From Microthyrium microscopicum (Eukaryota), in the NCBI GenBank assembly GCA_010405405.1, contig MU004244.1:127895-191894 (forward strand): a stretch of 64,000 nucleotides of DNA, in the 5' to 3' direction. Shown piece after piece: positions 3,780-25,349 of this stretch. Position 1 is the first letter of the stretch; every line of letters starts with the position of its first letter. A model generated the notes under the pieces. That model worked only from the letters and a program-made list of their open reading frames with translations. It was not told where the DNA came from and ran no database searches. The position numbers and the translations under genes are program-made.

Positions 3780-6623
3780 TCAAATTTCTTCCTCTTCTTC
3801 CTCTTCCTTCTCGACCGCCCCCTTCTCTTGAAAAGCTTCGTCAACCATCGCCTCGTCTTCATCGCCATCTTCTGCAACTGCATCTGACACTTGATCGACT
3901 TAAGGTTAGTATTTGTATTCACTCATTGGCTCTAATGACTTACCTTGAGCAGCAGTAGCAGCATCCTCCATGTCATCGTCACCATCCTCATCATTATGAT
4001 CTTGCTTCTCTTCGACAGTGGCTTGTTGAGCGGTAGAACTTGCATTTATTGCTGTGAAGGTGGATAGCTGGCTGCTTGCATTTCCATTTCGGAGAGTAGA
4101 CAACGGGCCGCTTGCGTTGACAGGCTGAGCGATTGGCGGATGAACCTGTGCAATGAAACCTTGGTAATCATGATGCTGTACATGTGCATTGAGGAGCTGA
4201 GAGATAGGTGGTAGAGCTCGCGCAGCCATAATAGCTTGAGTGAGTGGAGTTTGGCATGGCATTCTCATAGTCTGAGTGACTAAAGGTTGGTTCTGCGCAT
4301 TGGTAGCTTGGAAGCCTGCTTGTTGAACATGCCTATTGTTGTGCTGAGAGACTGGTGGTTGATAGCGTGAATTGATAGCTTGAGCGACTGAAGGTTGGAG
4401 TCGCACTTTGTTGGCTTGGAAACCAGAAGATCGGTTCTGCGCGTTCAAAGTCTGCAAAGCAGTCATTTGGGCTTGTGCATTCATGGTGTTCAAGCCTGAT
4501 GGTGGGCCATACGTATTCATAAACTGCAAAGTTGGCGCCTGAGTTGGCGCAACAGGAGCTCGAGAAGCGGAGTATTGGATGTGTGGAATCATAGCCTTTT
4601 GACGTGCCTCCTCCATCTCTTTCTCCATCTTTTTCTTCAACTTGTCCGCTGCTACCCCGTCTTTACCGGCTTTACGCTTTCCCTCTTGAGTCGAAGATAT
4701 TCCAACAGAAGCCGCGACAGGAACAATTGAGCCTTTGTCACCCTTGGAAATAGTGCCTGCGCCACAGATACCTCTGATCCAGCCCCACTCTCGCCGACCT
4801 GGATGAGTTTTGGGCCACTTCACGCCGTTATCGTCGGAAGGCTCTTTGTCATGGCAAGCTAGCATGTGGGCTTGCATACCTGATACGAAGTTAGCTTGAT
4901 GCGTGTCGTAGCATTTTGAAAGGATACAGACACAGGGTGCTTCTTACCTTTAGGACCTTTGAAGAAGATTAGATGGTTTCCTGAAGTCGAGTGGATTCCC
5001 GCATTGGCTCCACCTAAAATCCGTCAGTCCACGTATCAAAGTTGGCGAGGGATGTGTTCAAACTTACACAATGGACACTTCAGAGTTTGTAACTTATCAT
5101 CGCCCAGATCAAAAACAGGGAGTTGGTCTATCGCGAGTTTTGAAGCATCAGGAATCGTTGTTTCATCATTTGGAATTGCTCGGGTTCGTGCGACAGGTTG
5201 AGGAGCTGCTTGAGCTGTAGTGCGAGAGCTTGATGCATGAGTGGCCACAGGACCCCCAACATGCTGTTGCTGAGCAGCGTTAACGGCGACTATAGGCGTA
5301 CCACACATAAATTGCATCGCTTGTACACTGGGCATAGGAAAGTTGTATTGCGGAGGACGATTTGGGGGCGTGAGATGAGTACCATATGTCGCTTGCATTT
5401 GTGGTAGAGGACCCGCAGTAACAGAAGGAGCCAGAGCCAGAGGACCCCGGCGAGCTGGCTCCGGAATAGCAGGTGCTGCAGATGCGAGAGTCTGACGAGC
5501 TGGAGCAGATTGAGACGGAGGCGCACGATGACGGCCAGTACGCGCTGCAGGCCGAACTAAAGCAGCGGCAGGAGCAGGAGCAGGAGCAAGGTTTTGATGG
5601 CGACCAGACCAGGCAAATTGAGAGGTAATTGCACCAGCGCCAAAAGTCACAAGTTGACCACCCGCAGGAGGCGGAACCTGTGAACGAGGAGCAGCTTTCT
5701 GACGAGGAGGAACCTGCGGATGAGGAGCAGTTTGCGAATGAGGGGCAGCGGGTAGAAGACTAGCAACATATGGACCTGGAGCAATCTGCGAACCTGGAGC
5801 AACATATAGACGAGGAGCATAATATGAACCAGAAGCAGCATACGGACCATGAGTAGCCTGCGAATGAGGAAGAGCATATGAACTAAGAGCAGTCCCCGGA
5901 TGATTAGCAGCAGGCTGACGAGACAAAGCTCGAGGTCCTGGTTGAGTCGCAGCCTGCGAATCGGAATTGTACGAAGGGTCCGTCAAAGCAGCATAAGTCA
6001 TAACCCGGCTTGCCAGATCGATTGGATCCGAGTTCAATGGGCCAGCTTCATGTAATGTTTCGTTATGGTTAGACTGACGAGTTTGACGTGGCGGTGCGAT
6101 TGAAGCTGTGGTAGGCAGATCTGGCGCAAAATCCGCGCGTTCGTAAGCGTATCTACCGTCCGCATCTCGCTGTTCAGCATGCTGAATTACATGACCATAT
6201 CGAGGCTGGATGGAGTTGTACGTCGAGGGCGCATCTGGGACTTCCGGATTGAGAATCGCAGAGAGAGAAATGTAGCCGGTGTACGGTACATAAGCTCGTT
6301 CTTGAATCACATTTGAGATTGCCGTAGGTGCATTTGCGTTGGTGACGTTGACGATAACGTTGTCAGAAGCTTGAGTACGAGTGACCGGTTTTTCTTGTCG
6401 GCGTTGATCTAGTTCTTCTTGATTGAGAGGGGATGCCGACGCAGGATCCATTTGAGTATTGGAGACTACAGGAGGATCTTCTCGACAGTCTATATTCAGT
6501 TTTAGTTTCAATATCTCCTTTGGTTGGCAGCGAGAACTTACCTTCTGCGCTATCTCCATGTTGCTTATCCATTTTTTGATGAGATGGAGGATCAACTTCC
6601 ATAGCATCTGGCGTATCGTCCAT
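3780..6623 (-). CDS. ~874-aa low-complexity protein with atypical zinc-finger-like domain (paralogue A), 5 exons
   Basis: Joins ORFs 6363-6623, 5036-6658 and 3906-4877 via GT-AG introns 6541-6490, 5067-5014, 4947-4880 and 3943-3899. Spliced length is 2625 nt, in frame. Spliced motif KCPLCGANA...FFKGPKGMQAHMLACH; P/A/Q-rich flanks; basic patch KRKAGK...KKK; acidic C-terminus ending EKEEEEEEEI*. Confidence 0.8.
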
Positions 6624-7850
6624 TGTCTCAATGATTTACTTGAATGTAGCAAGAGCAATGTCCTTGGTCTATATTTGGTACGTCTGGAGGTCTGAGTATG
6701 ATGGATGTGTTCGTTTGATGCAGAGGAGAGTTCGAGCTGAGGATTTGATGGAAAGGACGGGAGGTTGAAGGTAAAAGCCAGTGAATGACAGCGACGGTAA
6801 GGTGAAGTTTGAAGGTCCTAGTCGAGTGAAGCTATGTCGACGCAATCTGTGACCTCAACCCAATGGCCACTACTTTTATCTAGATAGCCCCCGTAGAAAA
6901 TGCGGAGACATAAAGTCATCATGAGATACCTTGAAGGGAAGTGACTGGAGTGTTGGTTGTTTCTTGGCCATACTTTGGGTTTGGCAGTTTCGACATCAGT
7001 GTCAAGAGCACCAAAAAGATAATTCTAGACTCCCGGAAACAGAACTAAAAGATTTGCTAATTAGTATGACTTTGCACGCTGGTTTTGCAATGGTTGAATC
7101 AAGAATAGATTCATAATCATGACCTAGAGGATTTCGTTACTTCGAATCTCTTGAGCTTCTACTTTGTTGAGCCTCATCACGCAAAGATGATTGGTAGTCT
7201 GTAAAACAGTAGAAGTCAGGGAGCATAGCTATCTAAAGTTTGTACCTCGTAGATAATACACTTTTGGAACCTCAAAGTTCTTCTCAAAGCTACTTTATAT
7301 CCAGCTCTTTGATGGTCGCTATAGCCCCCTTGCCGCTATTTCTCAGGAACTAAGCATTGAGTCACTATCTATCTATTGCGCTTCTTGGCAAGCTGTGGAG
7401 ACCTATGGTGCCTCAGGTGCCTGTTCCGGGAACGTGATAGTCCTACAGACTTATATGTAGCCAGCCCCTTTAGAGCCACCTGGCGCGTCTTTATTCGGAC
7501 CTAGAGGCTCACCTGAATCTTATTTCGGGCCATGGAGGCCGATAGGTCAGGTCACCATTTCATCAATTTTGGTCGGGCGCGGGGAAAACCTCAATGCTAA
7601 GTCAAAATTGAAAAGACGATGCGGCCGATGCCATCCTAAATGACAAGCCTGTCCATTTCAATTCCCCATTGAGTATCATTTGAGGTATTCTTTTTTGGGA
7701 TAGGATGTTTGCGATTGACAAGTCTCAGGAAGACCATCCATGAAATCGTATTTGACAGATATATCTCTCATATATAAGGTACGGAGGAATGAACGCCACT
7801 CCAAAAACAGGAGGTGGCGTAACTAATGTGGCGCACCACGATGTTTCTAA

Positions 7851-10493
7851 TAGTGATGCAGTATTTCTCACTTGATCGGTTATACTACGAACGCCGTTAA
7901 ACTACCGTAATTAACACGTTTAACTTCTACTACTAGTTTAACTACATCTAATTAGTATAAATAACTGCTTATAGCATTAAAACCTATAATCATTACTAGT
8001 TTAGGGTTAGCGCACTAAAATTAATCTTAAAGTTTAGGATCTAACTTTAACCTAAACTACTAAAGAATCTAATAGTTTTTAATTATTAAGCACTCTATAA
8101 CTATAGCTTAAACTATAATAATTTTTAGATATACGTGTTCTTTTTATTTAGCTCTTTATAATAATATACGTTTTAAATTTAATAAGAGGTTTTTAATAAG
8201 TCTAATTTACCTCTAAAAATACTATAATATTTAATCCTTTTTTAATAGTTACTATACTATTTCTTTACTAAAAATGGCTCTAAGAAGGCTAAATCGAACA
8301 AAACGGCGAAAGTAAGAGATTCTTCTTTACTAAAATATGCTTCCTTATTAAGATCTAACAAAATTACTAGAATTTACTTATAAATACTATCCTTAAACGT
8401 ATTTTTATAATATAGAGTATATAGAGCAATATTTAATTTAGGAAGGGCATATTTAACGTCTTATAGTTCCTACTACTCCCTCTTAGTTAAATATAGCTAA
8501 TTTACGTATATAAATGCGAATTAAATAGGATTACTACTATATATAATAAATAATAAAAGAAGAGCTTCCTATAAGTATATTTAATAAATCTTACTATTAA
8601 ATAACCTATAAACACGAAGTTAAATCTATAAGATTAGCTAGAATATTAAATTACTTACCTTTATAAAGAGGCTAGATACTAAATTTAGTTAAAGACATCT
8701 ACAACGAAGATCTTCTACTACTTTAAGAGGTACTATAAAATTAGCCTCTTCTTAACTTCTTATTAGATAAAAGTATTAATAAAGCTAATTATTAAATAGC
8801 TAATTTCTATATTATTATACCTACTTTAGGTTCCTTCTATTTTAAAATCGTTAATTTAGGTAGAGTATATTTAATAGCTTTAGCTATAGCCTACCTCTTA
8901 TTAGATACTTTTTACTATTAGACGAAAGAAAATCTTTTACGTATTAATTTAATTATTTTAGATACGTATCCTACTATACGTACAGTTTAAAATATACTTA
9001 AAAAATACCTAGAATAGGCCTTTAAGAAGTACTTAATAATACTATACGATTCTTATAGTCTTTAGCTTCTAATTAAGGATATTTTAGGTAATATTCCCTT
9101 TCTAAAAAGTACTTAGAATTAAATTTAAGAGATAGCAACCTAGTTTAGATCTAGGCCCTTATACTTTAGTATACTTTAAGATATTTAACAATATTAACTT
9201 AGTAAGACGTACAGAATAGGATTATTAGTAATTACTTATTAAGGAACCTAATTTAATCTAGTTTAATTACTAGAACGTAGTAAAATAGCTATAGATTCTT
9301 TTATAAAAACTATTAAAGTTCTTAGAGACACTAGAGCTATTAAAAATAAGAATAAGATTATATTTAATACTATAAAGAATCTACTCTTTTAGAGGAACTA
9401 TAGATTCCTATCTTATATCCTAAAGCCTATATATAACGCTTAGGTTTAATTAAAAGGGCTATAGTATTACTTAGGTAAAGTAATAAAGGACTAGTCTTCT
9501 ATTAGAACTACCTAGTAAGATCTTTATAAAGAATACTCTAAGATAGACAATATCACTAGTATTTAAGCTAAACTTCTCTATTTATTAGAAGAATAATAAA
9601 ATCTTTAAATTATAGACGATATTAATCTAGCACACGCTCTAGATCCTTTAATAGTTATTAAAACATTAGTTTTATAGTAATATGCTATAGTATTTTAAGC
9701 TCTAAGGAATTAATTTAAAGCACGTCTTAGTACCTCTAAAGAAGAGAGAGATAAAGCTAAGGAAGAGATCTTACTTATTAGTAATAAATTCTATATTTTT
9801 AGACTTTAAATAGGAGTATTTTTAATATCTTTAGATAGTACTAAAGCTTAGGATTACTAAAAACTATTACATTTTTAGGAATATCTTTAAATAGTAGTTC
9901 TAAAGCTCTTTAACATTACGATTAGGCTATTTAAAACTATAGCTAATTCTATACTATTAAAAAGAGCGTTTTTAATAGTTAATTAGATTTAGAACCCTTA
10001 ATAAACAAGATTAACTAGTAAGTAAGTAAATATGCTAGTTTTTAGCTTTATAAACAATAAAAAGCTTAATTAGTTAGTAGTACAATTAGGACTATATTAC
10101 ATTAGTAGTTTGCTATTTATACTACGCTATTAGTATAATTTAGATCTACTTAAAGTTAAAGATTTTAATAATCACTTCTTTAAGCGTTAGTTATTAAATC
10201 TTATTATAGTAAAAAAGGAAGAAAATATTAAGATAATAAAACGTACTATTAAAGAGAGTACTTAATAGGCTATAGTAGGGGCTACGAATTATATTCGCGA
10301 GTTATAGAGAGAAACTTAAGGTTTAGATAAAGAATTATAGCTATTTTATAACACCAAAAGTTATATAGAAAGTAATTTAATTTGGCTTCAAAATAATCGT
10401 GTTTTTAGCTATTGATGTTGCTAAACGCTGATTAGATGTTAAGGGCTTGGCGGTAGAGTTGGTTAAACACCCTCTACCGATCGCGCATCACTA
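7851..10493 (+). mobile_element. hAT-superfamily DNA transposon, full length (2643 bp), inactivated by RIP
   Basis: TIRs TAGTGATGC (7851-7859) / GCATCACTA (10485-10493). Perfect 8-bp TSD GTTTCTAA at 7843-7850 and 10494-10501. Interior very AT-rich, TpA-rich and CpA/TpG-depleted. hAT transposase motifs are recoverable by reversing transitions. Confidence 0.95.
8274..10300 (+). pseudogene. RIP-mutated hAT transposase relic (BED finger, DUF659/RNase H-like core, hATC dimerisation region)
   Basis: ATG at 8274. Reversing C>T/G>A changes gives TCKYC...EQHL (BED-like, ~8375-8435), D(E)S(T)NK..(H)(R)IANF (~8765-8810), RIN(S)I.(S)DT(C)PT(M)R.V(W) (~8940-8990), (P)(C)DS(H)(G)L(Q)LLIKDIL (~9040-9086) and RLF.T.ANS(V)(P)(S)(E)RAF(S)..N(W)I (~9921-9990). 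Many in-frame TAA/TAG. 3' end approximate. Confidence 0.88.
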
Positions 10494-11124
10494 GTTTCTA
10501 AGGTTGGGCGATAAGAGAAGACCCTTGACTGTTTTTGTCGTCAAGTCAAGCTCTCGACAAACAAGTTTGTGAACAAGTAATTTTTAGAGATATTCTAACT
10601 GTCAGCTGTCGTTTGGCGGGCAACCCAAAATGATGCGACATGGCGGGTACATAAAACCTGAGGCCCAGTCATCGCAACTCATTCTTGCCAGATGGATCGC
10701 ACCACTTTCTCACAAGTTTGCCAAGTTCAAGCGAACTTGGTATATCTATGCACCAACTCTATTAACTCTCTGTAAGCATGATTCCGACGCACGGCAAAAC
10801 CATGAGTCCAGCGCCAATAACTGCACTAAGGACTGCTAGACTCATCCCGTTGAGACAAATACATTGATACAAAAGTGGCCCACAGAGGGTTTTTTAGGTT
10901 TCTCTCGTACATCTTCCAGCTTTTTCCTAGATATCTCTTCCAAGCCTTTCTTGGAGCCTCTGTCATTACTTTCTTATGATCTCGCTCACTCTTCTTGCAC
11001 GCACTATTATAGTCTCTCCTCACACCGTCAGTTACTGCTTCGCGTAAAAGCTTTGTCATCCATTCATAGCTGCCTCAGCATCGGTGGTCTCCATGAACAC
11101 TAGACCTCATGGTTCTTGAATCAT

Positions 11125-13456
11125 TTAATGATCGATCTTGCTCTTCTTGACGCCTCGCATCGAAAGGCCCTGAGCATCGCTCTCACCATTGACGCTCTTA
11201 TCTTGGTCCCGCTCGCGCTTGCGGCGCAGAGAATTGCCACTAACAATATTGACCTGCGCATTACCCGTATGTGAAGGTTGGATCAGCCAGCTGGGTTGGC
11301 CCATAGATCGCCATTGAGTCATTTGGCCGCCCGTCGGTGCTTGCTGCATTGGGAGTCGAGACATGCCGCCTTGAAGCATTCGTTGGCCTTGAGATATCTG
11401 ATGACCTTGAGGAACGTGACTTCCTGGTAGCTGTCCTTGACTTGCTTGGACCGAAGACCACTGCCCGGGCTGCATTTGCATCTGTACCGACGACATATTC
11501 GCATGATTTGAGGGGTTAGTCGCCAAATTTATACCCATTGGATGGCCACCTTGACCAAAGGCCTGGGAGTATTGCCAGTGTTGCACTTGCACGTAGCGAA
11601 CAGTCTGGGCTTGCTGTTGGTTTGTTTGGACTCGCTGTTGCTGAGCCTGGATATCATGTAGCAACTGCGCATGTTGCTGGAGCTGGATTTGTTGTTGCTG
11701 AGCTAGTGCTTGCTGCCGAACCATTGCTTGCTGCCGAGCAAGTGCTTGCCGCTGCTGGGCCTGCTGCAGTTTCAGAAGCTGAGCCAATCGCTCCCGCTCT
11801 CTACCCAGACGGCGCTCCTCCGCTGCCAAAGGGTGAATCTGCGAATTTGTCGGAATGGCAACAAGGGAAGCAATCTGGCCAGGTCTAATTGTTCTAGTAC
11901 GGCAATGCGTACGCAGCCACAAATAGTTTTTGCGGTCTGCGTGACCCTTGGGAAGGGGTCGACCATGACTGTCGGAGGGCTGAATACCATGTGCGACCCA
12001 CAGATGTTCTAGCATAGCTGAGAAATAGGTTAATTTAAACTCATGGAACAGCATGTACTTTGGTAGACTTACCTTTTTCAGACTTGAAAAATTCAAGTCG
12101 ATCATCTTCCTCCTTCTTTCCCTCGATTCGACGAGCGTTTCCACCACAAACCTGACAATACAGAAGCTGCAGGTCACCGTTGGGTAATTTATGTAAGGGA
12201 AGCTGATTCACCTTCTCGGCACCAAGCAGAGCGGCGGCATCTGGCATGAATACATTGGCTGTAGGAGGACGAGCAGGTCGAGAATTCGGTGGTGTGACTC
12301 CTGGGGGAGGCACATAGATCACTTCACCACGACGACTGAAGCCAAGTACTGCTCGTGGAGGATTGGCAATTTGAGCATTTGCGTTAGAGTTTGGCGCTTG
12401 TATTGATGCAGAGCCAGCGGAAGGAGCTTGCAAGAGTGGAACCGAACCCATGGTTGCAATAGAGTTGGAAGCAACAGTGGGTGCAGGGTAGGGAGGAGCA
12501 GTGGGCGCAGGGTAGGGAGGAACAGTGTGCCCATTGTGTAGTGGACCTGGATGATTGGCGGTCGGCAGCGGAGGACCACGATTACCTAGATGAGTAGGAA
12601 CCGCTGGGTAATGAGAATGAGTATGCGATGGCGGCAAGACATTTTGGAGACGATCGTGGGTGTGGACTACTGAATCAGCCGGCAAAGAATCTTGGCCCTG
12701 CGTCGAGATATCCGCTGCTTGTCGTGGTCTATCTCCATAGTGGGAAAGTACCACATCCGGGCCCGCTTGATTATGCTGCACAGCAACATCGTCGTCAATG
12801 CCTCGATGATCATTGTCATGAAGATCAACCGTAGGATCATGGTGCGCATTACCAGATGGTAGGGTTGAACGATTTACTGTTTCCATATAACCTGAGCCAT
12901 CATAAGCAAAGTCCGGGGCATCAGATGAAGCAGCCTCAGGACTGAGCTTATTAGACGTGTCCGGAGCAGTGAGAGACACTACTGAAGTATCGTTTGCTGT
13001 GGCCACAGAATTTGTTGGATGAATCGAGTCGCTGTCTGAGAGTAGGAAGGTGCGCGATATCGCGGGTGAGGATTGGATCAACTCCTGTTGAGAATCTTCT
13101 CGTTGGGTTCCGTGTTGTGGAGTAGTATCCGAGACTGCCATAAAAGACAGGAAGGGCTCATCGTCTGGTTCTGGCACAGATAGGAAGTTACGATGCCGAG
13201 CTTGCGACAGATCTGAAGGAGTGGGGAAGGGAGATATGGCTTGCGATAGATCTAGAGGATTCGTAGAGGGAGATTGGTCAAGATGAACAGAGTCATTACT
13301 CTCTGAGTCGAATTGGGTTGGTGTGGCCTCGAGTGGTGGTTCATCAAAACTGGTTTGCTCCAGTAATGCCTGCGTTTCTTTGTCAACTTCGAATACGGCG
13401 CCGTCCCGCGTGGCGGCGAGCAGTTGCTCGAGGTTAATCGCGTCAAACTCAGCCAT
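11125..13456 (-). CDS. ~758-aa low-complexity/polyQ protein with atypical zinc-finger-like domain (paralogue B), 2 exons
   Basis: ORFs 12041-13456 and 11125-12177 joined by intron 12072-12018 (GTAAGT...TTAAC...CAG). Spliced length is 2277 nt, in frame. Motif YCQVCGGNA...FFKSEKAMLEHLWVAH; Q-rich tract; C-terminal RRKRER...KKSK (NLS-like). Confidence 0.85.
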
Positions 13457-16127
13457 TGTAGGAGTTATGGCGGTGTGAAGATCTCTTTTAAGACCAGCAC
13501 GGTACGAAAGAGTGATCGCAGCGATCAGGAAGAGATATAGTAGCGCTTATTCAAAATGAAATTGAAACGAATGAGGAGGGCGCGGCGGGAAGATGATCTC
13601 AATGTTGTGAAGGCGTGGTGGTTTTTGATGCTTGAAGTAGAACGGGTTTGTGTTGGATGGAATAGAGGTTAAGGATTGGAGCTCGAGGGATGTGGTTGCT
13701 AGCGGAATAAGAGTGACGGGGCATGAAAAGAGCCCACCTCAGAAAAATCATCTCAATGTCGACGAGGTGGCTTTTGGAAGCACCTAGTCACTTCACGATA
13801 CCTTGGGTGGTAAGAGCCACCTGCTTTCAGCGCAGCTTCTACGAGCTTTGTGGTTTTCACGGTCTTCTCTCGAGACCATAGCAAAAGCTCCAAATGTTGT
13901 GCCATTGATATCAGCGGTTGATTATGAAGATAAGACAGATTTCCCATCATATTGCGCTTCATGCTTTCTTCATTGCATATATCATAGCCCATCGGAGCCT
14001 CAACAATGGCAATTCTCAATTGAAGATTATTTATTTGGCAACACGAGAAGACTATCTTAGATTAGTTTGCTCCGTTTTACCTGATATCATGAGCGGTATC
14101 AGCATTGTGCTCCAGGGAATCTTGGTGCGAGACCATATGCTATGAGGAGAAGCACACTTCATAGACAAACGCCCAAGTCAACTCATATTGGCGAAAAACG
14201 ATGAGATGCCTCGGTTAACAGGACGTGAGCGATTAGAAAGAGGTTGAAGTCGAAGTCACATATGTTATCATCAAGTTGACTGAAAGATGCTTCAAAAAGT
14301 GGCTCACTTTGTTAAGAGCGTTGGATACTCACTTGATCTTAATGTTTGACAAATCGATTACTCTAATATGATGAACGATGGAAAAGACACCCGTAGTCTA
14401 CGATTCATGTACTATTCTAGGCTTTGGGTTACTGGCTGGATTGAATGGTACTTGGCTGAGAGTCTATCCAAAACTTCCGTGGCTGATCGATAAAAAAATC
14501 GGCGAATTGGATCTTATGTTACAAGTTACACAATGAGGTGGAGTTGAGAGCCACGTGAAGTACATCCGGCTTCGTCACTTTTTGATAGCTCGAAACCACC
14601 ACATGCTGCAATTACGAGTACCCAGATCTTTGCTGTTTTCACGATACGAGATGTTCAGATTCAGAACACCACGGCGTCTACTAGACCACTAGTCCATTGA
14701 TTTGGAGCGAATTTAAACCCGTCCAATGAAGGGCACAAAATATAATGCGAATCATTGCTTGTTGTTAGTTTGAATATTTGCCATCTTCGTATTTCCCATA
14801 AGAGCCAAAGCAGCCCAATTTTTGACATGGGTTTAAAACCTCCAAGCGACATATTTCTCTACTTAAAGTGCAGTGCCATCGTCTCAGGCCCCATGCCAAA
14901 CGCTTGGATTCAGAGGCCAATCAATGAGGTTGAGTTCCAACTCCAAAATTGCTTCCAATATTATTCAGAATTTCTTTTGGAATAGAGAGTCTTTTTCAAA
15001 TCGGAGAATATAGCGCACAAATTAAGTGCAAGCCGTTACTTCGTAAACAATGAAGCTGTGTTTCTCAGCCTTGTGCAAGAATACATGAGGTAGGTTCTAT
15101 GAGGCTGAGAATGCAAGGATGCGATTGGCTCATTAAAACAAGGCCGAATACATGTTGCAGACCTGCCAACGGGATTCTCCTATTCCCCCTCTCAAAAATA
15201 TGTATATGCAACTTTTAGTATGATTGGCTTACGGCCAGCGCCTTAATAGGTTGAACTGGGTGAAACTAAATATTGCCATACGTTAAGTCTGATGGAGACT
15301 TGATGAGACTTGATGGCTTGTCTTTAAGCCAATTAAGCCTCTGGATTTTCATTTCACATTTTAGGGGAGATATAACAGAACTTCGATGGCATTGTATCGT
15401 TTCGGATGCACTGAGTCGTGCGCACTCTACGAAGGATTATATCCATCAGTTTCTACGCACAATATAACACACAATAAAAAAGTTGATTAAAAAATATCGC
15501 ATACTCTTTCTCAGAAAGGTGGATGCAGCGGTTGCCGCTCACAGAACCATGTCATTCCGTTGCATGCTAGAAAGAAATATTTCCCTCGTGCTGTTCAGCT
15601 TGATTGATGGCCACGAATGAAGGAACTAGGCTGGTCAAAGAAATGTCTTTCAAAGCTCTGTGTTCGTCTTTTTGGCATTTCTGAGGGTTTTATACACTTT
15701 CCAGAAGGCGAACTTAAGGTACTAAGCTATGGTATAAACACTTGGATGAAATCACTATGAGACATTTTCAATCTTAGTTGAATGACAAATCATCTGAATC
15801 GGGTTGAAAAAATTGAAATCCTTCGTCAAGTTCCCTTATTCACTAGTACTTACTATTGAATCTTGAAAATGCAGTTTCGCAGAACAAGCATTGGACCTCT
15901 TTGAATTGAAATCAAGCACCATAAGATAAGACTTCGAAGCAACTCAACAAGAAAACGTACCTACGCCCTGGTCTAGATTCCACCCTGGGATCTTTCAATG
16001 ACACCAGTTTGACGTCATTCGTGAGACTTGACATATTGCATTTTTGAGACTTCTTTATCAACTCCCATATCTTCTCCTAAGTAAACTGTCAACCTATAAA
16101 GCAAAAAACTCCCACACGCTTCCAAAC

Positions 16128-16845
16128 ATGAACGAAAACTCAACTTCCAACAACGCCGCAGGCGCCCCAGAAAGTCTTACGAACAAAACACTTGAAACAG
16201 CAGCCTCACTGACCCAAGATCTCGCGCCCGTCAAACGAATATGCGCCCATCTCAATGCATTCCACGCCTACGCCTCTGATACCAGTCGGTTCGTCGAAGC
16301 CAACCACTACTGTAGCCACATCAATGAAGGTCCTACACCCCATTTTCTCTCTCACCTACGACCACTAACACCATGCAGATATGCGCCAATGCATAATCTA
16401 CGACTCCCCAGACGCCAACGCCCGCTTAATCGGCATCGAATACATGATCTCACCCCGCCTCTACAACGACCTGCCCCAAGATGAGCGCAAACTATGGCAT
16501 TCCCACGTCTTTGAAGTGAAAAGTGGCATGCTCATCATGCCCAAACCTGCGGCAATTCCGGAAATTGTTTGGGAAGCGCCAGAGGGTAAGGAGATGGAGG
16601 ACGTTGTTACGTGGTATGGCAAGGTGTATCACCTTTGGCAGGTCGATAGGGGTGATAAAGTGCCGTTGGGAGAACCGCAGTTGATGACGAGCTTTACGAA
16701 TGATAGTCACTTTCCGCAATTTGAGAAGGAGTTGAGGGATAGGGATGCGAGATTTGGTAGTGACTTTAAAGTCAAGAAAGAGGCTAGGAAGGGGATTGAG
16801 GTGCCGGAGATTCATGGGGATGCTGATCAGGCTTGGAAGGCGTGA
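16128..16845 (+). CDS. DUF1264 / oil-body-associated protein-like
   Basis: Motifs [66 protein letters not shown]. One intron 16330-16378 joins ORFs 16044-16484 and 16381-16845 in frame. Confidence 0.9.
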
Positions 16846-16955
16846 TTTCATGCATTTGAGACTCAAAAAGAACGAATTTGAAATTTTAGTGACATGTTCT
16901 ACATAGCAACCATTCCCAGATAAATCGCATCTTACAAGCCGTCAGCCAGACGTTC

Positions 16956-17982
16956 CTAGAGCCACTCTTTTGTTCCAAAATGAGACACAAAAGCACCACC
17001 AAACTCCTTAACCGTCGCCCTTTCCACCAACTTCATGACATGCTCCACCGAATCTTTCGTACTAATAGGTCCAGCAAATTCAGGTTTATATTTCGCAAAC
17101 GCACCAATCATTGGAGCCAGCTTCTCCAACTGCTCTGGAGTTGCTATTGAACTGTCAGCACACAGGCTTGCCAAAAAGAAAATAGATGAGAATCTTACGA
17201 GTCTTTCCTTCACTACTATCGACCAAACCCGGACTAATCGACATGAAAAGAATGCCCTCAGACCCAAACGCAGCGTTATATTTAGCTACCAGGGCGTTGG
17301 TGGCTGCTTTGCTGATTGAGTAAGGGGCGCCCAGGCCGAGGGAGAGTGAGTTGATCAGATCTGTTCGGGAGTTAGCAACTGCAAGATCTGGTAGGTTGAT
17401 CGATGGCGGAGAAAAACGCACCTATGTCTGCCATCCCTGACGAAATAGTAATAATTTTCTTCACCGTACTCTTCTTGATCAAAGGAAGAAAGGCGGTGAC
17501 CGTGTTAGCCACACCAATTACGTTGGTTTGGAATGCATCAGATAATTCCTTGTTCAACTCTTCAGCATTGTTCTCGCTATCCTCAACGTTAACATTACTC
17601 ATAATTCTGGTTGGTGGAGTCGGACGGACATACTAATGAGTTAAATCAACATAGCCAGAAGCCGTTGAAACAGAAGCTGCATTATTTATCAAGTAGTCGA
17701 GATTGCCTCCAGTTAGTTTAGCAACTTCTGCAGCGGATTTTTGCAGAGCTGGGAAATCGGTGATGTCGGCTTCGTAGATTGTGACGTTGGTAATGCCGTC
17801 TTTTGCTAATCGTTCGTCTGTGGCAACTTTGTTGCGAACTAAACCTATGACGGTGTTGGATTTATCTTGGGCTAATTGGCGGGCAAACTCGTACTACGAG
17901 AGGTTAAAGGGATTTCTTGAATGTTGTTTACAATGCTTACGCCAATGCCGCGAGAGGTTCCAGTGATTAAGTAGGACGGCAT
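16956..17982 (-). CDS. Short-chain dehydrogenase/reductase (C-factor/CsgA-like), multi-exon
   Basis: N-terminal MPSYLITGTSRGIG (TGxxxGxG), LINNAA, FQTNVIG, KIITISSG, catalytic PYSISKAA (YxxxK), SISPGLVD, C-terminal GAFVSHFGTKEWL. Several canonical short introns. Confidence 0.92.
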
Positions 17983-18498
17983 TGTTGGAACGTGATGTGG
18001 AAATATTGGTATGGAGTATGTTGTATGAAGATGCTGCTTTAGTAATTGATGATAATGAGAGATGGGAGCAGAGACGAGAGTATTTATATGTTGGTCACTA
18101 CAACCTCGTATCTCCATTCTGGACCGTTAATTTGATAGGAGCTGGCTTTGTAAGAGCGCTTCATAATGGCTGAGAGACATGGCAAGTATCAGCGAGCCAA
18201 TCTGAATGCTCATTAGCAATCAAGCTCTTTGACTGATTGGACACTCGCACTGCTCCATATAACTTAAATGTATAGTCCAAAGTATAATTCGAACATTTCC
18301 AATCAACCTCAAGACTGGCAACTTTCTCCGATGCTAACCTCTTCGGGTAAGTGCAATATCTTGACAATGTTGTACTTGAGTTGCAATCACCAGTTCCGAA
18401 CTTCTACATGTCCTTCTGAAATCTCCAGGACAACTGCATCTCCACGCAAGGCAAATAGCCGGGTGGTTCTTGGGGGTTTTTATACTTCATTTTATCAT

Positions 18499-20221
18499 TC
18501 AAGCAAAACATGGCAGATTGCCATATGTATTCATGATCGCATCGAATTTCTCCACATAATTTAGTGCCTTTTCAGGATCTAAGTCATCTTGCGCCCAAGA
18601 AGCCTCTATGATCTGCTGGGTGAGAGCGAAGTTTCCAATCTTACGGGACTCTCGCGTGCGACGCAGAATATCGAGTATCAGCAATCGTTCCTCGTCAGAG
18701 CGTGCTTCACATCCGATTATAAGCAAGGGGAAAGCTCGTTCACATGTGTCCAGGTCTGCAAGTATGTTAAAGCCAGCTTCAATATCACATTGGGCTCTGG
18801 GTGAAACGAATGCGTGGTTGCGGCATGCACCGTTAAGATAGATCAAGCCAGCTAGACGGTAAAGCTCTGCGATTTTGGTGGCGGCATTTTCGATAGGGAA
18901 TGCCTCTGAACTTTCGTCAACGGAAACATACTGCTTCACGAACTGTAATTTCCTTTCGAGTTGGTCGATCTTCATTAAACGCTCGAAAGAACTGAGCCCC
19001 GAGCCGTGCGCTTTGGGTTGTGCAAGTTCGCTGATGCCGGCAATTGCTTCTAGCACTGCCGCAGAGCATCCTGCTGAGCTTATAATCTATAAAATGTCAG
19101 TTTGCCTTCCAAGCAGTTGAGGGTCGGGTTGTATACCTTGGAGGAATCACCAGATAATCGCACTGCTTGCTTGACTTGGGCATCGCTCACGCATTCCCGC
19201 ATGCCAGGGGTACTTCGAGCCCAGTGAAGAGCGCTGAACCTGGAAAGCGTGTCGTGATAGAATAACCAGTCCAGTATAATGCGCGCGTCTCCTTCATATG
19301 CTCGATCCGGAGAGAAGACCTGGTTACCTGCTTGCTTTGCGCTACAGATATACACTGCCCAATTATAGCTTATTCCTGAAGATTCATACATCTATATGAA
19401 GTTAGAGGAGGCACTTTAGGCCTGAGGCACGCTTATACGTACTTCGAAAAGGCCGAGAAGCAATCCAGCAGCAATATGTTGGAGTTGATCTCTGGCGCTC
19501 AGGGGAGTTTCTATGGAGTCAAGAAGGGCTTGGGTGGCTTTCCTTCTGAAAATGGATGCGGTCTCGAACCCGTAGAGATTTATAGCGGTCAGAGCATACA
19601 GAGCCTGGCGGACGGCTACGGATGAGAGCGAGTTATCGGTAAAAGACATGGAAATAAGCAAGCCTTTGAATTTTTCGTCGTCTAGAAGTGTAAGCGTTGC
19701 TGCAATTGATCGTTCATCTACGAGGTCAAATTAGATAGAACAGAATTGTCACTAAGAATACAGTCTTACAATGCGATACAAGTGTGCTATTGAATCCATC
19801 GGTTCCTGAAGGAATCCAGGACATTGATTGAGGAACCGATTTCGGATTTCTCAAGGTATTCCGGGTTGCCCATTTCAGGACCTTGTAGTAGTCTTCAGAG
19901 TTCGGTGCATTAGATACAAGCTTTAAGTAGAGCTGTATATCTGAAGATCTGACGCGAAGGAAGTGAACGCCCGATTTTCTCCGCGACGATGTGAATGTAT
20001 CATGCTGTTTTTCATGCAGCACTATACTTCTACGAGCATCTCCAGCCTGTGGCCAAGATAGCTGTATGCCGTATTGACAAGCCTTGCCAACTTTGACGCA
20101 GTTTGAGCATGTTGGAGTTTTGAAGTCGCAACGAACTTTTCTACCTTGCCATTGAGTCAGCACACTGTCGGCAAGAGGGTTCTGTAGGCGCACTTTTACA
20201 TGTCCAGCAAGCTTTACCCAT
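18499..20221 (-). CDS. Zn(II)2Cys6 transcription factor with fungal-specific TF (Fungal_trans_2-type) domain
   Basis: Spliced N-terminus MGKACWTCK/SRKVRCDFKTPTCSNCVKVGKAC (six Cys), then LSWP. Later exons carry LDWLFYHDTLSRFS, AELYRLAGLIYL, FPLLIIGCEARSDEER and WAQDDL. Confidence 0.92.
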
Positions 20222-20672
20222 TATCTAGCACTGGAACACCGTCTGGTGAGGCCAGCACTAGTGTTAGAGGAGAAAGCAAATGAAGATGGTCTTGGAAGCA
20301 GTAAGCATGATTGATTAGTCAGCCAATTTCCTCGTTTCATGCCAAGCCTCTGTCTAACTCCATCCTCTCTTGTCCAGTTCGGACTCAGTTTCTTCGTCCG
20401 CAATATACTCCTTCATCGCAGATATGCTGCTTCTTAATCATTGACTGCTGCCTCATGTCTGTCGCGGCACTGATGCAGCCTATCCTGCCTCAGTCATCCG
20501 TCCCGTAAGAGGACGCAACAAGCCCCGACCTTGCCCTCCCGTCCGGCATCTTGGCCATTAGTCCTGGCGCTTCTGAGATCTCATACATGTTGAGCTTCTG
20601 AGGCTGAGATTGAGGCCTTGGACTCTACCGATGAATCGCACTGGCCTTGTCGTGCTGTGCTACATACTACTT

Positions 20673-22433
20673 TCAACCGGTTCCATTTCTTCTTTCGATG
20701 TAATTCCGGTCGCGTTGTAATTTGGATAACTTTGTTGCGATCTGCTCTCTGGCATCCATCTCGTTATGATCAATTGACGCAGCCATCTCAGGGACCCCAG
20801 AAGCAGTCAATTCGTGAAGAGAAGTGGGGGAAACCTCATGAAGAGTGGGACTAAGCTGTTCACTGCTCGGGGAAGCGGGTAGTTCATGAATGACCGTCTC
20901 GCGCAAATCGATGAGATCGCCAATCTTTTCGCGGGTCTCCGCATCATGCTCTGATTGTTCCTGCTCAGCAGAATGCGGTGTCGACTCTGTCGCTTGTTTC
21001 CGCGACTTTTGCTTGCGTCTCATGCAGAAGATTATCAGGCCGGCAGCAATGGCAACCCCTAGGATTGTCCCTACCACTGCAGAGGCTATTTCAGCTCCTG
21101 ATATCTGTTTATTAGGACCACTCGAGGCATTCTTCGCAATAAACAGTTTCTGTACATCCGGATGTGCCCACTTGGTAGGAGTTGCCCTGGCAGAGATTGC
21201 AGCGACTACAAAGTCCGGCGGTGTGTAAGTCGTCAACTTCGGATCAAATGAATCTACTGCAGCTTGTTTATTAACGTCGTAAATATACGCAATGCTTCCA
21301 TAGTCCTCGCCACCTCTTCCCGTGAAGTTCTGGCGTCCGCCAATAACAAATATCTGCGAGCCAACACGCTGGCAGCTAACGGACATGCGAGTTCGAGCTG
21401 GAGCGGCAGTGAACCACTGGAACGAAGGAATTGACAGAACCGACACGGTATCGAGAACCTTGGTAGTCTTGTAATTCGCGCCTCCAATTGTCCAGATCTG
21501 CCATGACTTTGTAGCTTTATCATACACTGTTGATGCGCAGAATTCGGTCCGTGGAGTGGCTTTGCCGGAAGTGTTCTGACGGTGCCATTTATTGTTGGCT
21601 ATATCGTAAATCCAAACATAGTCCCAGCTATTGACGTTGAGACCGTCAACGGAATCAACTGCAGGGCTCGACGGCGTTTCGCCGCCAAAATACACGAGCA
21701 CACCGCCTCCAGATGTCGGAATATATGATACCGTACCAAACTGCGAGGGCAGAAATGGCGCATCCACCATACTAGGATTGTTCGTATTCGTGTCGAATGA
21801 TAACATGCTTGTTGCAAAACGATATAGCCCGTCGTCAGGCACGTCCTCCGTTGTCTCCTTCGACTGGTATCCTCCAAGGAAGAACCCTTTGTGCAGCTCC
21901 GGCACGTTTATCGACGCACCGTCCGTCAGTCGCTGCATACTGAGTAATGTCGAAACAACGGACCATCGATTGTTTTGAACATCATATTGATAGAAATCAT
22001 TGCCTTTGGGTGCCGATTTTCCGGGGAATTGGCCACCATAGCTGAATAGGGTTGTGTTGGACGAGTTTTCCCACATTACGCCTCCCTTGAACTTGTGGAT
22101 CTCGGCAGGGAGGGAGGTTAATCTCCAGTTCGTGCCATCGGTGAGGTCGAAAGGGGCACTGAGGTTTGTGTCGACCATGTAGACGCGAGTGTTGTTCCCA
22201 TCGCCGCGAACTGCACCTCCGTCGAGACCAAGCATGAGAAGCTTGTCGTTCGTGACGATGGAAGAGAAGGTCCACGATCGGCAGAATCCATAGCTAAGTG
22301 CGTTCAGAGACTGGTTGGTGGGAAAGGTTGGAAATTTGGGGTTTCTATCGCACCACTCTTGGGTGGTCAATTGAGAGGCGGTGGGTAACAGCAGGCTGTG
22401 CCATATTAGGCCACGAGAGAGGCGCATTCTCAT
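20673..22433 (-). CDS. Kelch/beta-propeller type I single-pass membrane protein
   Basis: Intronless 586-aa ORF. N-terminal hydrophobic leader; kelch-like GG motifs (FSYGG, FFLGG, VYFGG, WTIGG, FVIGG); VLSIPSFQW; TM helix IASAVVGTILGVAIAAGLIIFC followed by RRKQK. Confidence 0.88.
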   Translation of the reverse strand: MRMRLSRGLIWHSLLLPTASQLTTQEWCDRNPKFPTFPTNQSLNALSYGFCRSWTFSSIVTNDKLLMLGLDGGAVRGDGNNTRVYMVDTNLSAPFDLTDGTNWRLTSLPAEIHKFKGGVMWENSSNTTLFSYGGQFPGKSAPKGNDFYQYDVQNNRWSVVSTLLSMQRLTDGASINVPELHKGFFLGGYQSKETTEDVPDDGLYRFATSMLSFDTNTNNPSMVDAPFLPSQFGTVSYIPTSGGGVLVYFGGETPSSPAVDSVDGLNVNSWDYVWIYDIANNKWHRQNTSGKATPRTEFCASTVYDKATKSWQIWTIGGANYKTTKVLDTVSVLSIPSFQWFTAAPARTRMSVSCQRVGSQIFVIGGRQNFTGRGGEDYGSIAYIYDVNKQAAVDSFDPKLTTYTPPDFVVAAISARATPTKWAHPDVQKLFIAKNASSGPNKQISGAEIASAVVGTILGVAIAAGLIIFCMRRKQKSRKQATESTPHSAEQEQSEHDAETREKIGDLIDLRETVIHELPASPSSEQLSPTLHEVSPTSLHELTASGVPEMAASIDHNEMDAREQIATKLSKLQRDRNYIERRNGTG

Positions 22434-23470
22434 ATGTTAAACATTCGCCGAGACTCGGGCTAGTGGTATGCTGTCTTTGTAGCTTCAGTGCAGCAGGCCT
22501 TGACGAAGAATGGGGCCGCCAAGGGAGTTTTATTAGTTCACTGAAGTCTCGCCGCCCAAGACGTTGTAGCATCCTGAAATAGACTCCATGTCAACTGCCA
22601 TGCATGAAAGCGATATCCAGGGCATGTTATTAAGACAATCGGATGTCATATTACAATTGGCCAACCGCATCACAATGCCAGCAGCTCAACTTAACGTACG
22701 ACCTTACGGGTTGGAGGCTTGAGAGCGATGGTTCTCAATCCTATGGGTAGATAGATGAAACATGGATCAACAGACATCATGGCGCGACGAGGGAATCCAA
22801 ACAGGAGCAGAAGAATACCTGCCTTACTGCACAGCGACAGAGACGGCTTAGCCTGTCTATACACATCTGAAGCGGCCACCCAATGGGCCTCAGGATTCGA
22901 ATAGGAAACGACATACTATAGATTAATCACATACCTGGTCAGAATCTAGTGCTCAAACATAGCTCAGTCTCGCAGTCTGTATTTAACTAGAATTCCAGTG
23001 GTTAAAGAGTGACCTTACTCTGAGACGACCTGTCTTCGAAAAAAGTCGTCTTGCCAGTACTACCAAGATCTCGAAAGACAATCATGATATCGACAAGAAA
23101 ACATTTCTACAAATTCAACAACGAATGGGCTTGGGTAGTTCCAGATTCGTGTTTCCTTCAAATCTACTTCATCCGAAACTGGAAGGATTCGTAGGATTCC
23201 ACCCTTGCAATGCCTACAAGTTAATGGATGCTTTCGCTAATATCCATACCTGATTGCTTGGATTGTGCATTAGATGATTGTTTTACACATTTATTTTATG
23301 TTTAGCCATAGATTCTATCTCTGCTTGCGATACGTGTAATTAAAATTTACAACCAACATACTGGCCGGTTGATCCCACCAAAATGGACTCAGATGTGGGA
23401 AAGCAGGTAATACAACACCCGCCATAGTTCATTTCTCCAGCTACTCCCACGAAAGCCAGTCAAAGGCATG

Positions 23471-24598
23471 TTAAAAGATGACCACAACTTTCTTTGCGCT
23501 CACTCCCTTCTTTTGCATGTCGAAACCTTCCTGAATACCCTTTAAGCCTCTTGTAGGAACAACTAATGGCTCGGGACTTGGGATGAAAGTGCCCTGTGCA
23601 AGCGCATCCCCCAGAAAGGACTTCCAAACCGCAGGCCCGACTTCATTCTCCTCAAGATCACTCCCGAAAATAAAGTTCGTCTTCAGTCCTTTTGTTCTTG
23701 ACTTCCACCAGATCTTCGAATTGGCAGTCAGCATGCCCGTCAGCATCGAAGCCATTTCCAAAGGTCCGTTTGGTGCGCCATCCTTCTGACCCGGAAAGCT
23801 AGCCATTGCAACAAACTTGTTGGCTTTTTTCAGCGAACCTAGAATGTCGCAGCACTTTTCAGCAGAGCCGGATCCCATACTCAAGGCGCCGGCACAGTCC
23901 TTGTCTTCAAAGGCTCGGATAATGTCTGCCGCAACGGTCGCGGAGTTGTAGTCAAATGCCTGGCTTGCACCCAGCCTCTTGACAAAGTCGTAATTTCGTG
24001 GCGAGCAGGTCGTGAAAACTTCATAGCCAGATGCGCGTGCGAGCTGGATGGCATTTGCGCCAACACTCGTGCTTCCTCCCCAGATGAGGATGGTTTTTCC
24101 TGTATTCTTGATATTTATGCTCGGGAGAGCAAGGTTGAGGTACTTTTTCTGATAGAGGCCTGAAGCTGCAGTGCTAAGTCCCAGGGGAATCACACAAGCT
24201 TGTTCATAGCTCATAATTGCTGGCATTGGCGCGCACAAGTCCTCGCGTAGCAAGACATACTCTTGAAATGCTGCCTGAGTAGGATCGGATTTTCCCTGAG
24301 TGAAGCCGAGCCCAAAACCAACGACTCTATCACCAGGCTTGAATCTCTGTACGTTGCTTCCAACGGAGAGAACGCTGCCCGCCACGTCTGAGCCGACAAT
24401 GGTGGGGAATTTGATCCAAGAAAATGCCATGTTCCCCAGGTCCTGGATGATGCGGTCAATTGGATTGATGGCGACGGCATGGGATTGTATAAGTATTTGG
24501 TTGGGTCCGGGCTTGGTGTATGGAGCTGTTTTTATCTCGATCGATTTGCCTTTTGCAACCAACCAGGCAGCATCGTTCTGTTTGGATTCGGATAGCAT
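23471..24598 (-). CDS. Medium-chain dehydrogenase / enoyl-reductase-like oxidoreductase (CipB-like)
   Basis: Intronless 375-aa ORF with AVAINPID, GSDVAG, RFKPGDRV, AFQEY, LIWGGSTSVGANAIQLA and KGVSAKKVV. Confidence 0.93.
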   Translation of the reverse strand: MLSESKQNDAAWLVAKGKSIEIKTAPYTKPGPNQILIQSHAVAINPIDRIIQDLGNMAFSWIKFPTIVGSDVAGSVLSVGSNVQRFKPGDRVVGFGLGFTQGKSDPTQAAFQEYVLLREDLCAPMPAIMSYEQACVIPLGLSTAASGLYQKKYLNLALPSINIKNTGKTILIWGGSTSVGANAIQLARASGYEVFTTCSPRNYDFVKRLGASQAFDYNSATVAADIIRAFEDKDCAGALSMGSGSAEKCCDILGSLKKANKFVAMASFPGQKDGAPNGPLEMASMLTGMLTANSKIWWKSRTKGLKTNFIFGSDLEENEVGPAVWKSFLGDALAQGTFIPSPEPLVVPTRGLKGIQEGFDMQKKGVSAKKVVVIF

Positions 24599-25349
24599 TG
24601 TGAGGTTAGATCGACAGAAAAGGGGTTACTTGTGTTCAAGAGGCAATTTTCGCAGACAATAGGCGAACAATGATAAGAATCAAGAATGGACGTTTTGAAA
24701 CTCATTTCGGTCCAAGGACTTACCTTTTTGTACTCTAGCATCGGATTATTTGTTATGCCGTGTTGGTGCAACTATCAAGAGGCGAGTGTCATCTATTCAT
24801 TCTTAAACTCGTTGAGCATTACTGGCCACTGGGTTGATCAAATGTGTACGAGAAGAGGTAACTCGGGCGGGTAGCGTTCAAAATAAATGTACCTTTGTAA
24901 ACGAGAAGCGGTTAGCGTGGTTTGGTGCTCGGCGCCGAACGCACTGAATTAGGGGAAGATCTTATAACAGAAGGTATGAACACACTCTGGGCTTTGAAAA
25001 TGCTGCAAGTAGGTGGTACCTACCTCAATGTAATGGTTTATAGCCAAACTCAAAGTAACCGCCTCAGCTGTTTTTCCACGCTATCTATTCATCGCGTCCA
25101 GAATTCACCACGGCCGCGAATATGTGTCTCCTCCCACTTCCAAGCTCTACAAAAATTGCAAGACTCGAATTTTGTGATCAGAGGCATAAGGCGAATAAGG
25201 ATCTGAATAATCGCTACCCTCCAAATTCTCGTCGATTGTCACTGCCAACGACTCAGAGAACCAAGAACCAACATCAAGTATCATAATGTGGTTCTTCTCG
25301 TGCAAAAGAGCAAATTATGGCACTACATCGAAATGATCCAGGAAGCAGA

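Follow-up and report, generated by a model that had tools for sequence, protein, structure and literature searches.

A lineage-expanded family of Microthyrium microscopicum proteins that share an unnamed Cys2-His2 zinc-finger-like domain

Two neighbouring genes, here called A and B, in a stretch of 64,000 nucleotides (the window; contig MU004244.1, positions 127,895 to 191,894) of the leaf-litter fungus Microthyrium microscopicum encode largely dissimilar proteins that share one zinc-finger-like domain. We found that A and B are two of at least 12 intact paralogues in this species and not a simple duplicated pair. Their domain is an elaborated variant on the C2H2 theme that carries no name and could reasonably be proposed as a new family entry. 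The reading that we favour, and that we consider about equally likely to hold or to fail, is that A and B belong to a family of nuclear zinc-finger proteins which has expanded in this lineage and whose members bind nucleic acid or chromatin; the zinc binding, the nuclear location, the nucleic-acid binding and the regulatory role of the family are properties that we infer.

The first-pass annotation, which had been made from the letters of the window, described in the spliced products of A and B a common core with a spacer of 10 residues between GANA and IFFKG in A and of 13 residues between GGNA and EFFKS in B. Both strings that it quoted were recovered, spacers included, from the spliced minus-strand translations. 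When the two spliced products were compared by blastp, one high-scoring segment pair of 119 columns had 41 identities (34%), a score of 74.7 bits and an E-value of 7e-18; this likeness is far beyond chance and A and B are true paralogues. The remaining three segment pairs had E-values of 2.4-8.1, in keeping with the description of the two proteins as unalignable outside the domain. The phase-1 intron indeed interrupts the same aligned codon in both genes (AAA G/GT in A and AAA G/CT in B, with the slash marking the intron; same alignment column), and the compositional bias is as claimed, with 11% P, 14% A and 8% Q in A and 11% Q, 9% S and 9% P in B.

A profile built from the gene A domain and the two window pieces of the gene B domain was used to search 1,835,955,588 representative proteins at E<=1e-3. 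It retrieved 25 proteins, eight of them at E<=1e-10 and two at E<=1e-30, and the best 12 of the 25 were all 'hypothetical proteins' of M. microscopicum. The accessions of these are mostly serial (KAF2663606-609, 620-621, 648-649 and KAF2665841-843), and their distribution over three contigs is given in Table 1. A tblastn search of the window with the 25 proteins revealed no family copies beyond A and B, and a word-based search of longer proteins with a profile of 24 rows returned five among 8,000 scored candidates, all of them already known. The other 13 matches comprise two that we regard as noise (P0020 and P0025, which contain bacterial-type RYYR-CCHC repeats) and 11 with a finger core of around 50 residues, often present in two to three copies per protein. 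This core reads D-G, an aromatic residue, L-x-C-x2-C-x-G-N-A, a spacer and L-x-F-x-x-G-x-x-G-L-x-x-H-x4-H. Two of the 11 are from Lophium mytilinum (KAF2497405 and KAF2498934) and nine are fungus-like proteins of metagenome or Logan origin; in some of these wider-family proteins (P0016, unit 3, and P0023, unit 2) a C-terminal W-[IVL]-x3-C-G element is kept as well. The nearest clusters to a Lophium protein in the ESM Atlas are from Ascomycota, carry no family name and contain 193 (features 0.90), 180 (0.87) and 51 (0.86) members, and the cluster of 193 is at the same time the best structural neighbour of the gene A domain, with a template modelling score (TM) of 0.56 over 85 residues. All Atlas neighbour scores fall below the tool's own bar and serve as leads; as such they suggest that the module occurs widely among Ascomycota, the expansion alone being special to Microthyrium.

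Within the domain the 12 paralogues share 15-49% identity, and the tree of these 12 M. microscopicum domains is poorly resolved, with one of nine inner branches starred and four rows on long branches. The tree nevertheless speaks on the proposal of the first-pass annotation that A and B arose as a pair by an old tandem duplication. The best tree in which A and B are kept as a group falls short by 12.4 log-likelihood units and is rejected by the approximately unbiased test (p-AU 0.0088). On 158 kept columns gene B shows 46% identity to KAF2663621 (P0003) and 30% to A, and the test does not reject a grouping of these two, B and KAF2663621 (p-AU 0.20); the best partner of A is also KAF2663621, at 36% identity. 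Given a family of at least 12 members in which B is nearest to another protein, the duplication of an A-B pair is not supported. As A and B are not sisters, the intron position and phase that they share would be a family trait or otherwise old, and are no proof of a pairwise duplication.

The domain is interrupted by introns in both genes. On the minus strand, and with the standard code, the open frames of gene A run over 5036-6817 and 3906-4943 and those of gene B over 12041-13546 and 11125-12207, both sets being broken where the first-pass annotation had placed introns. Joining the five exons of gene A reproduces P0002, its public protein, letter for letter (search match 100% identity), and the earlier reading of the domain in this gene coincides with the public model. 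The three introns within the domains, two in A and one in B, all open with GTAAG, and a CTRAC-like branch sequence lies 9-11 bases ahead of the AG in each. Transcript data came from a single public run, X1 (kind guessed as RNA; 9% of sampled words). Contigs from this run match gene A with zero mismatches and bridge 5013/5068, 4879/4948 and 3889/3944, where each skip ends in CT..AC on the plus strand and hence in GT..AG on the strand of gene A. Contigs without introns and with splice-site ends indicate spliced transcripts, so that gene A is expressed and its transcripts are spliced in line with the model, and both introns predicted in its domain are borne out.

For gene B the intron in the domain is supported by its GT..AG ends, by homology and by the presence of the same junction in the public model. 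That model (P0001), however, is reproduced only when a further 60 in-frame bases are left out. The omitted bases encode NQLPLHKLPNGDLQLLYCQ plus one residue and include the first Cys ligand, so that the public protein loses 20 residues, among them this Cys and the conserved hairpin that precedes it. In the alignment the same stretch is matched by coding sequence in gene A and all other paralogues, and within it LPNGDLQ is identical in B and P0003. Since the deleted stretch is coding in A and the other paralogues, we take the gene B model of the first-pass annotation to be the better one; the public intron is probably an annotation error or marks a finger-less isoform. Searches at the level of exons each gave one protein, out of 67 candidates for B and out of 5 for A, both from M. 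microscopicum.

The putative ligands of the gene A domain are Cys499, Cys502, His528 and His533 of P0002, with the Asn of the core at position 505. In terms of the 113-residue stretch of A that was aligned in 24 rows (alignment A2), these two Cys and two His residues and the Asn (C29, C32, H58, H63 and N35) are at least 90% conserved. Among the 12 full-length paralogues C109, N112, F128, H138 and H143 of P0003 are invariant, and the first Cys, one Ala, one Pro, one Arg and one Trp are nearly so; the first Cys is missing solely from the row of the public gene B model. The general layout of the module is a Cys-x2(4)-Cys knuckle followed by an invariant G-N-A, and a His-x4-His on a helix, with a spacer from the second Cys to the first His of 25 residues in A, 28 in B and 21-34 across the family.

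AlphaFold2, supplied with the 24 rows, modelled the domain with a predicted local distance difference score (pLDDT) of 94.6 and a predicted template modelling score (pTM) of 0.84. Strands are predicted at 16-20/23-27 and at 36-39/45-48, forming two hairpins with the Cys knuckle between them, and a helix at 51-63 bears both His residues; then come two short helices, a strand (93-98) and a helix (99-104). A prediction for the whole of P0003 gave the same order of elements with a pLDDT above 90. Directly behind its domain, residues 196-273 are predicted as a single helix of 78 residues (pLDDT 96-98), and the remaining protein scores below 50. Each family protein is predicted to be mostly disordered with one folded module of around 115 residues. 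The P0003 helix starts with AEEERRLGRE, a motif that it has in common with gene B, so that the first part of the Q-rich region of B is probably helical as well; this predicted helix speaks against a disordered or prion-like reading of that part. A coiled-coil interpretation of the helices behind the domain was tried and set aside, as a crude heptad score exceeded that of shuffled sequences (z 3.4) in one of the 12 paralogues. The same crude test did not mark the P0003 helix as a coiled coil.

Outside the module, the family proteins have K/R-rich stretches after the domain. Many paralogues open, within the first 20 residues or so, with M-x-[SD]-x-[DE]-F or a similar acidic/aromatic sequence, and in many the last 15 residues or so consist of an acidic run and, after it, a basic [WF]KKx[RK], for example WKKxR. 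These terminal stretches may represent short linear motifs.

The first-pass annotation had described a Cys2-His2 domain with a long spacer that could not be assigned to a named family, and our comparisons with family and structure databases left it so, with neither a Pfam match nor a resembling solved structure. The Pfam copy used held 24,736 models, PF25909 not being among them. Neither the raw pieces of open reading frame nor the spliced public A and B gave a significant match in it. In the 21 true relatives (23 proteins scanned, less the two noise matches) no family was found at E<=0.01 other than zf-BED, below threshold in two proteins, and CCDC22_CC, a single coiled-coil match below cut-off in P0022. 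Searching the Protein Data Bank (PDB) by sequence, with a single sequence as well as a profile, gave alpha-SNAP alone (E 0.45), which we take as noise. With Foldseek, 77 rows at E<=10 were obtained from the PDB (best E 1.6) and 233 from BFVD, in both cases without any at E<=0.001. For the module as a whole no solved counterpart is therefore visible to the searches used, and its sole, weak resemblance is to C2H2 fingers. A check of the literature, which was not exhaustive, found no published account of the domain. Intron support, similarity between A and B, and a possible match to a known domain were the three points on which the first-pass annotation had said that its reading could fail, and it failed on none of them.

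The resemblance to classical C2H2 fingers (zf-C2H2, PF00096; solved examples are Kaiso, 6dfa, and AFV1p06, 2lvh) lies in the two conserved Cys and two conserved His and in the Cys-Cys and His-His spacings, which fit. The classical spacer, however, counts 12 residues, against 25 and 28 in A and B, and the long spacer here forms an additional hairpin; furthermore, the present module measures around 115 residues and bears a hairpin at its N-terminal end and a helix/strand extension at its C-terminal end. The gene A domain matched no C2H2 family of Pfam at E<=10, and among the 24 domain rows zf-C2H2_ZNF592 (E 0.22) and C2H2_ASCIZ (E 0.39) were each matched by a single row. The BED finger (zf-BED, PF02892) is similar in its Cys-x2-Cys, long spacer and His-x4-His and in the L-x2-H-x4-H helix, but BED fingers have neither the G-N-A motif nor the flanking elements, and no hAT transposase is attached here. 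On the finger units of two wider-family proteins zf-BED reached E 0.0059 and 0.0071, at 16.8-17.0 bits against a gathering cut-off of 20.6; it did not match A or B, and the structural rows contained no BED chain. Among named clusters of the Atlas the nearest, to be taken as leads, are the AHC1-type C2H2 finger (PF25909; TM 0.41 for the gene A domain, and features of 0.77-0.78 against a Lophium relative, below the tool's bar) and Rua1_C/ECM8 (PF14616; features 0.78-0.83, likewise below the bar), both from fungal, nuclear proteins. The Rua1_C model gave no match at E<=10 in the 24 domain rows.

If the favoured reading is correct, one zinc ion would be held by the cysteines of the knuckle and the two histidines of the helix, and would lock the four-stranded sheet against that helix, while the invariant Asn after the knuckle and the conserved Arg and Trp of the C-terminal extension would hold the larger module together. 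In the nucleus, the module thus stiffened could bind nucleic acid or chromatin jointly with the K/R-rich helix that follows it, and the flanking acidic, Q-rich and S/P/A-rich regions might act as effector regions, as they do in transcription regulators. Nuclear regulators are built in such a way, with one rigid module for binding, a helix of basic character and extended effector regions. In favour of nucleic-acid binding we count the repetition of the finger core in wider-family proteins, as multi-finger arrays are typical of nucleic-acid binders.

Several observations argue against this reading. No Pfam DNA-binding family was matched by the domain in any of the 24 rows, and families that appeared below threshold included zf-BED in three rows (best E 0.024) and Zn_SUZ12 (PF23320) in four (best E 0.16), the latter matching the gene A domain with 11 bits (E 0.36) where 28 bits are required. 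A letter count shows that the gene A domain is not net basic (13 K/R versus 11 D/E). The helix positions that read bases in classical fingers are conserved among the paralogues instead of varied, and this does not agree with a diversification of the family in its DNA specificity. Moreover, in 11 of the 12 paralogues the helices behind the domain lack a heptad signal above shuffles, and the X1 transcript support is limited to gene A, with zero cover over gene B.

Second in rank to nucleic-acid or chromatin binding comes a role as protein-protein adaptor, in which the zinc module would not bind nucleic acid and would, for instance, dock disordered proteins onto chromatin-modifying complexes. The yeast ADA acetyltransferase complex contains an AHC1-type finger for which a scaffold or docking role of this kind has been put forward. 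The conserved would-be base-reading positions and the lack of net basic charge in gene A are what one might expect of an adaptor, and the nearest named Atlas neighbours carry zf-C2H2_AHC1 (PF25909). These neighbours are leads from scores below the tool's bar, however; we regard an adaptor as unlikely, yet the least so of the alternatives.

A more remote alternative, which we consider decidedly improbable, is that the family consists of fast-evolving, locally amplifying conflict genes, engaged in repeat defence or themselves selfish or transposon-derived, in which the zinc module is kept merely as a targeting device. The expansion is restricted to one species and clustered, the domains have diverged to the identities given above, and a block of AT-rich sequence lies between A and B with a composition like that left by repeat-induced point mutation (RIP). 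Against this, the 21 family matches contain no transposase, integrase or other mobile-element domain of Pfam, and the AT-rich block shows no likeness to either gene, not even with transitions left out of account.

Even less credence can be given to the proposal of the first-pass annotation as a whole, namely that A and B descend from one old tandem duplication and are prion-like, condensate-forming proteins. It accounts for two genes that are adjacent, in the same orientation and alike in the position and phase of an intron, and for the long low-complexity regions, including the Q-rich stretch in B. It is at odds with the rejection of the A+B tree, with the closer kinship of B to KAF2663621, and with the homology between the start of the Q-rich stretch and the long helix that is confidently predicted in the latter protein. 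That the module binds RNA instead of DNA, like C2H2 fingers of the matrin/U1/JAZ type with their long helix, is the least probable of all: the Cys2-His2 ligands with a long helix and the flanks rich in charged helices would suit it, but zf-met, zf-U1 and zf-C2H2_jaz are unmatched in true family members and chains of this type are absent from the structural rows, all of which are weak.

Lineage-specific expansions of zinc fingers are common, and in this respect the present case will not surprise the specialist. If the module does bind zinc and nucleic acid, as the favoured reading has it, an unnamed domain would be added to the regulator types of fungi, and there would be a handle on several hundred 'hypothetical' proteins of Ascomycota. 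That the domain has escaped scans of open reading frames and family libraries can be understood from the short introns that split it and, in gene B, from the doubtful annotated intron that damages it. What calls for an explanation is the origin and the survival of a dozen species-restricted, clustered paralogues in a genome with RIP-like blocks. A bolder version, in our judgement a long shot, would have the module as a new fold class of zinc-dependent nucleic-acid binder that defines an Ascomycota regulator family, and the burst in Microthyrium, to a dozen or more copies that are clustered and diverge fast, as the outcome of an arms race. The former would concern several hundred uncharacterised proteins, provided that the three nearest Atlas clusters (of 193, 180 and 51 proteins) are genuinely related; the latter might reflect, for example, the silencing of repeats, as by the KRAB zinc-finger genes of vertebrates.

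Table 1. Positions of genes A and B, their domains and introns, other features of the window (numbered from its first letter), and the contigs that carry family members
Feature	Position	Strand	Remarks
Gene A (KAF2663648, BT63DRAFT_483839, P0002)	3780..6623	-	871 aa; annotated 'hypothetical protein'
Gene A exons	6623-6542, 6489-5068, 5013-4948, 4879-3944, 3889-3780 (incl. stop)	-	joined translation equals P0002
Gene A zinc-finger-like domain	4701..5173	-	P0002 residues 467-583 (hidden Markov model (HMM) envelope); split by two introns
Gene A first intron	6490..6541	-	52 nt; required to reproduce P0002; outside X1 contig cover
Gene A intron in second Cys codon (T/GT)	5014..5067	-	54 nt, phase 1; GTAAGT..TTTTAG, CTGAC branch
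Gene A intron at K-G codon	4880..4947	-	68 nt, phase 1; GTAAGA..ATCAG, CTAAC branch
Gene A C-terminal intron	3890..3943	-	54 nt; required to reproduce P0002
Gene B (KAF2663649, BT63DRAFT_465307, P0001)	11125..13456	-	annotated 'hypothetical protein'
Gene B exons, model of the first-pass annotation	13456-12073, 12017-11125	-	758 aa; public model 738 aa
Gene B zinc-finger-like domain	11830..12271	-	HMM envelope 402-517 of spliced protein; split by one intron
Gene B intron at K-A codon	12018..12072	-	55 nt, phase 1; GTAAGT..TCTCAG, TTAAC branch
In-frame 60 bases spliced out in public gene B model	12152..12211	-	GTGAAT..GTCAG; probable annotation error or finger-less isoform
AT-rich block between A and B	about 8000..10400	.	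2.4 kb, GC 22-25%, RIP-like composition
DUF1264 gene split over two frames	16032-16845	+	
Zn2Cys6/Fungal_trans_2 regulator	18499-20220	-	
Kelch-repeat protein with membrane segment	20673-22436	-	
Zinc alcohol dehydrogenase	23471-24625	-	
Family members on the 1,089,509-base contig (that of the window)			n=8; KAF2663606, 607, 608, 609, 620, 621, 648 (A), 649 (B)
Family members on the 1,739,686-base contig			n=3; KAF2665841, 842, 843
Family member on the 506,503-base contig			n=1; KAF2663371

The AT-rich block between the two genes was considered as a decayed copy of the family and rejected as such, since alignments in a purine/pyrimidine alphabet scored 40-45, against 40-58 for shuffled sequences. 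At its edges the block is touched by X1 contigs: one of 603 bases (depth 33) matches 10370-10493 in part, with five transition differences, and one of 4.9 kb (depth 449) shares 32 bases at 7851-7882. Both continue into other sequence and look like copies of a repeat from elsewhere in the genome. Another X1 contig, of 161 bases (depth 3), matches the intergenic positions 7507-7667 without mismatch and may come from a transcript that is not annotated, or from stray DNA among the reads. The neighbouring genes at 16032-24625 are ordinary.

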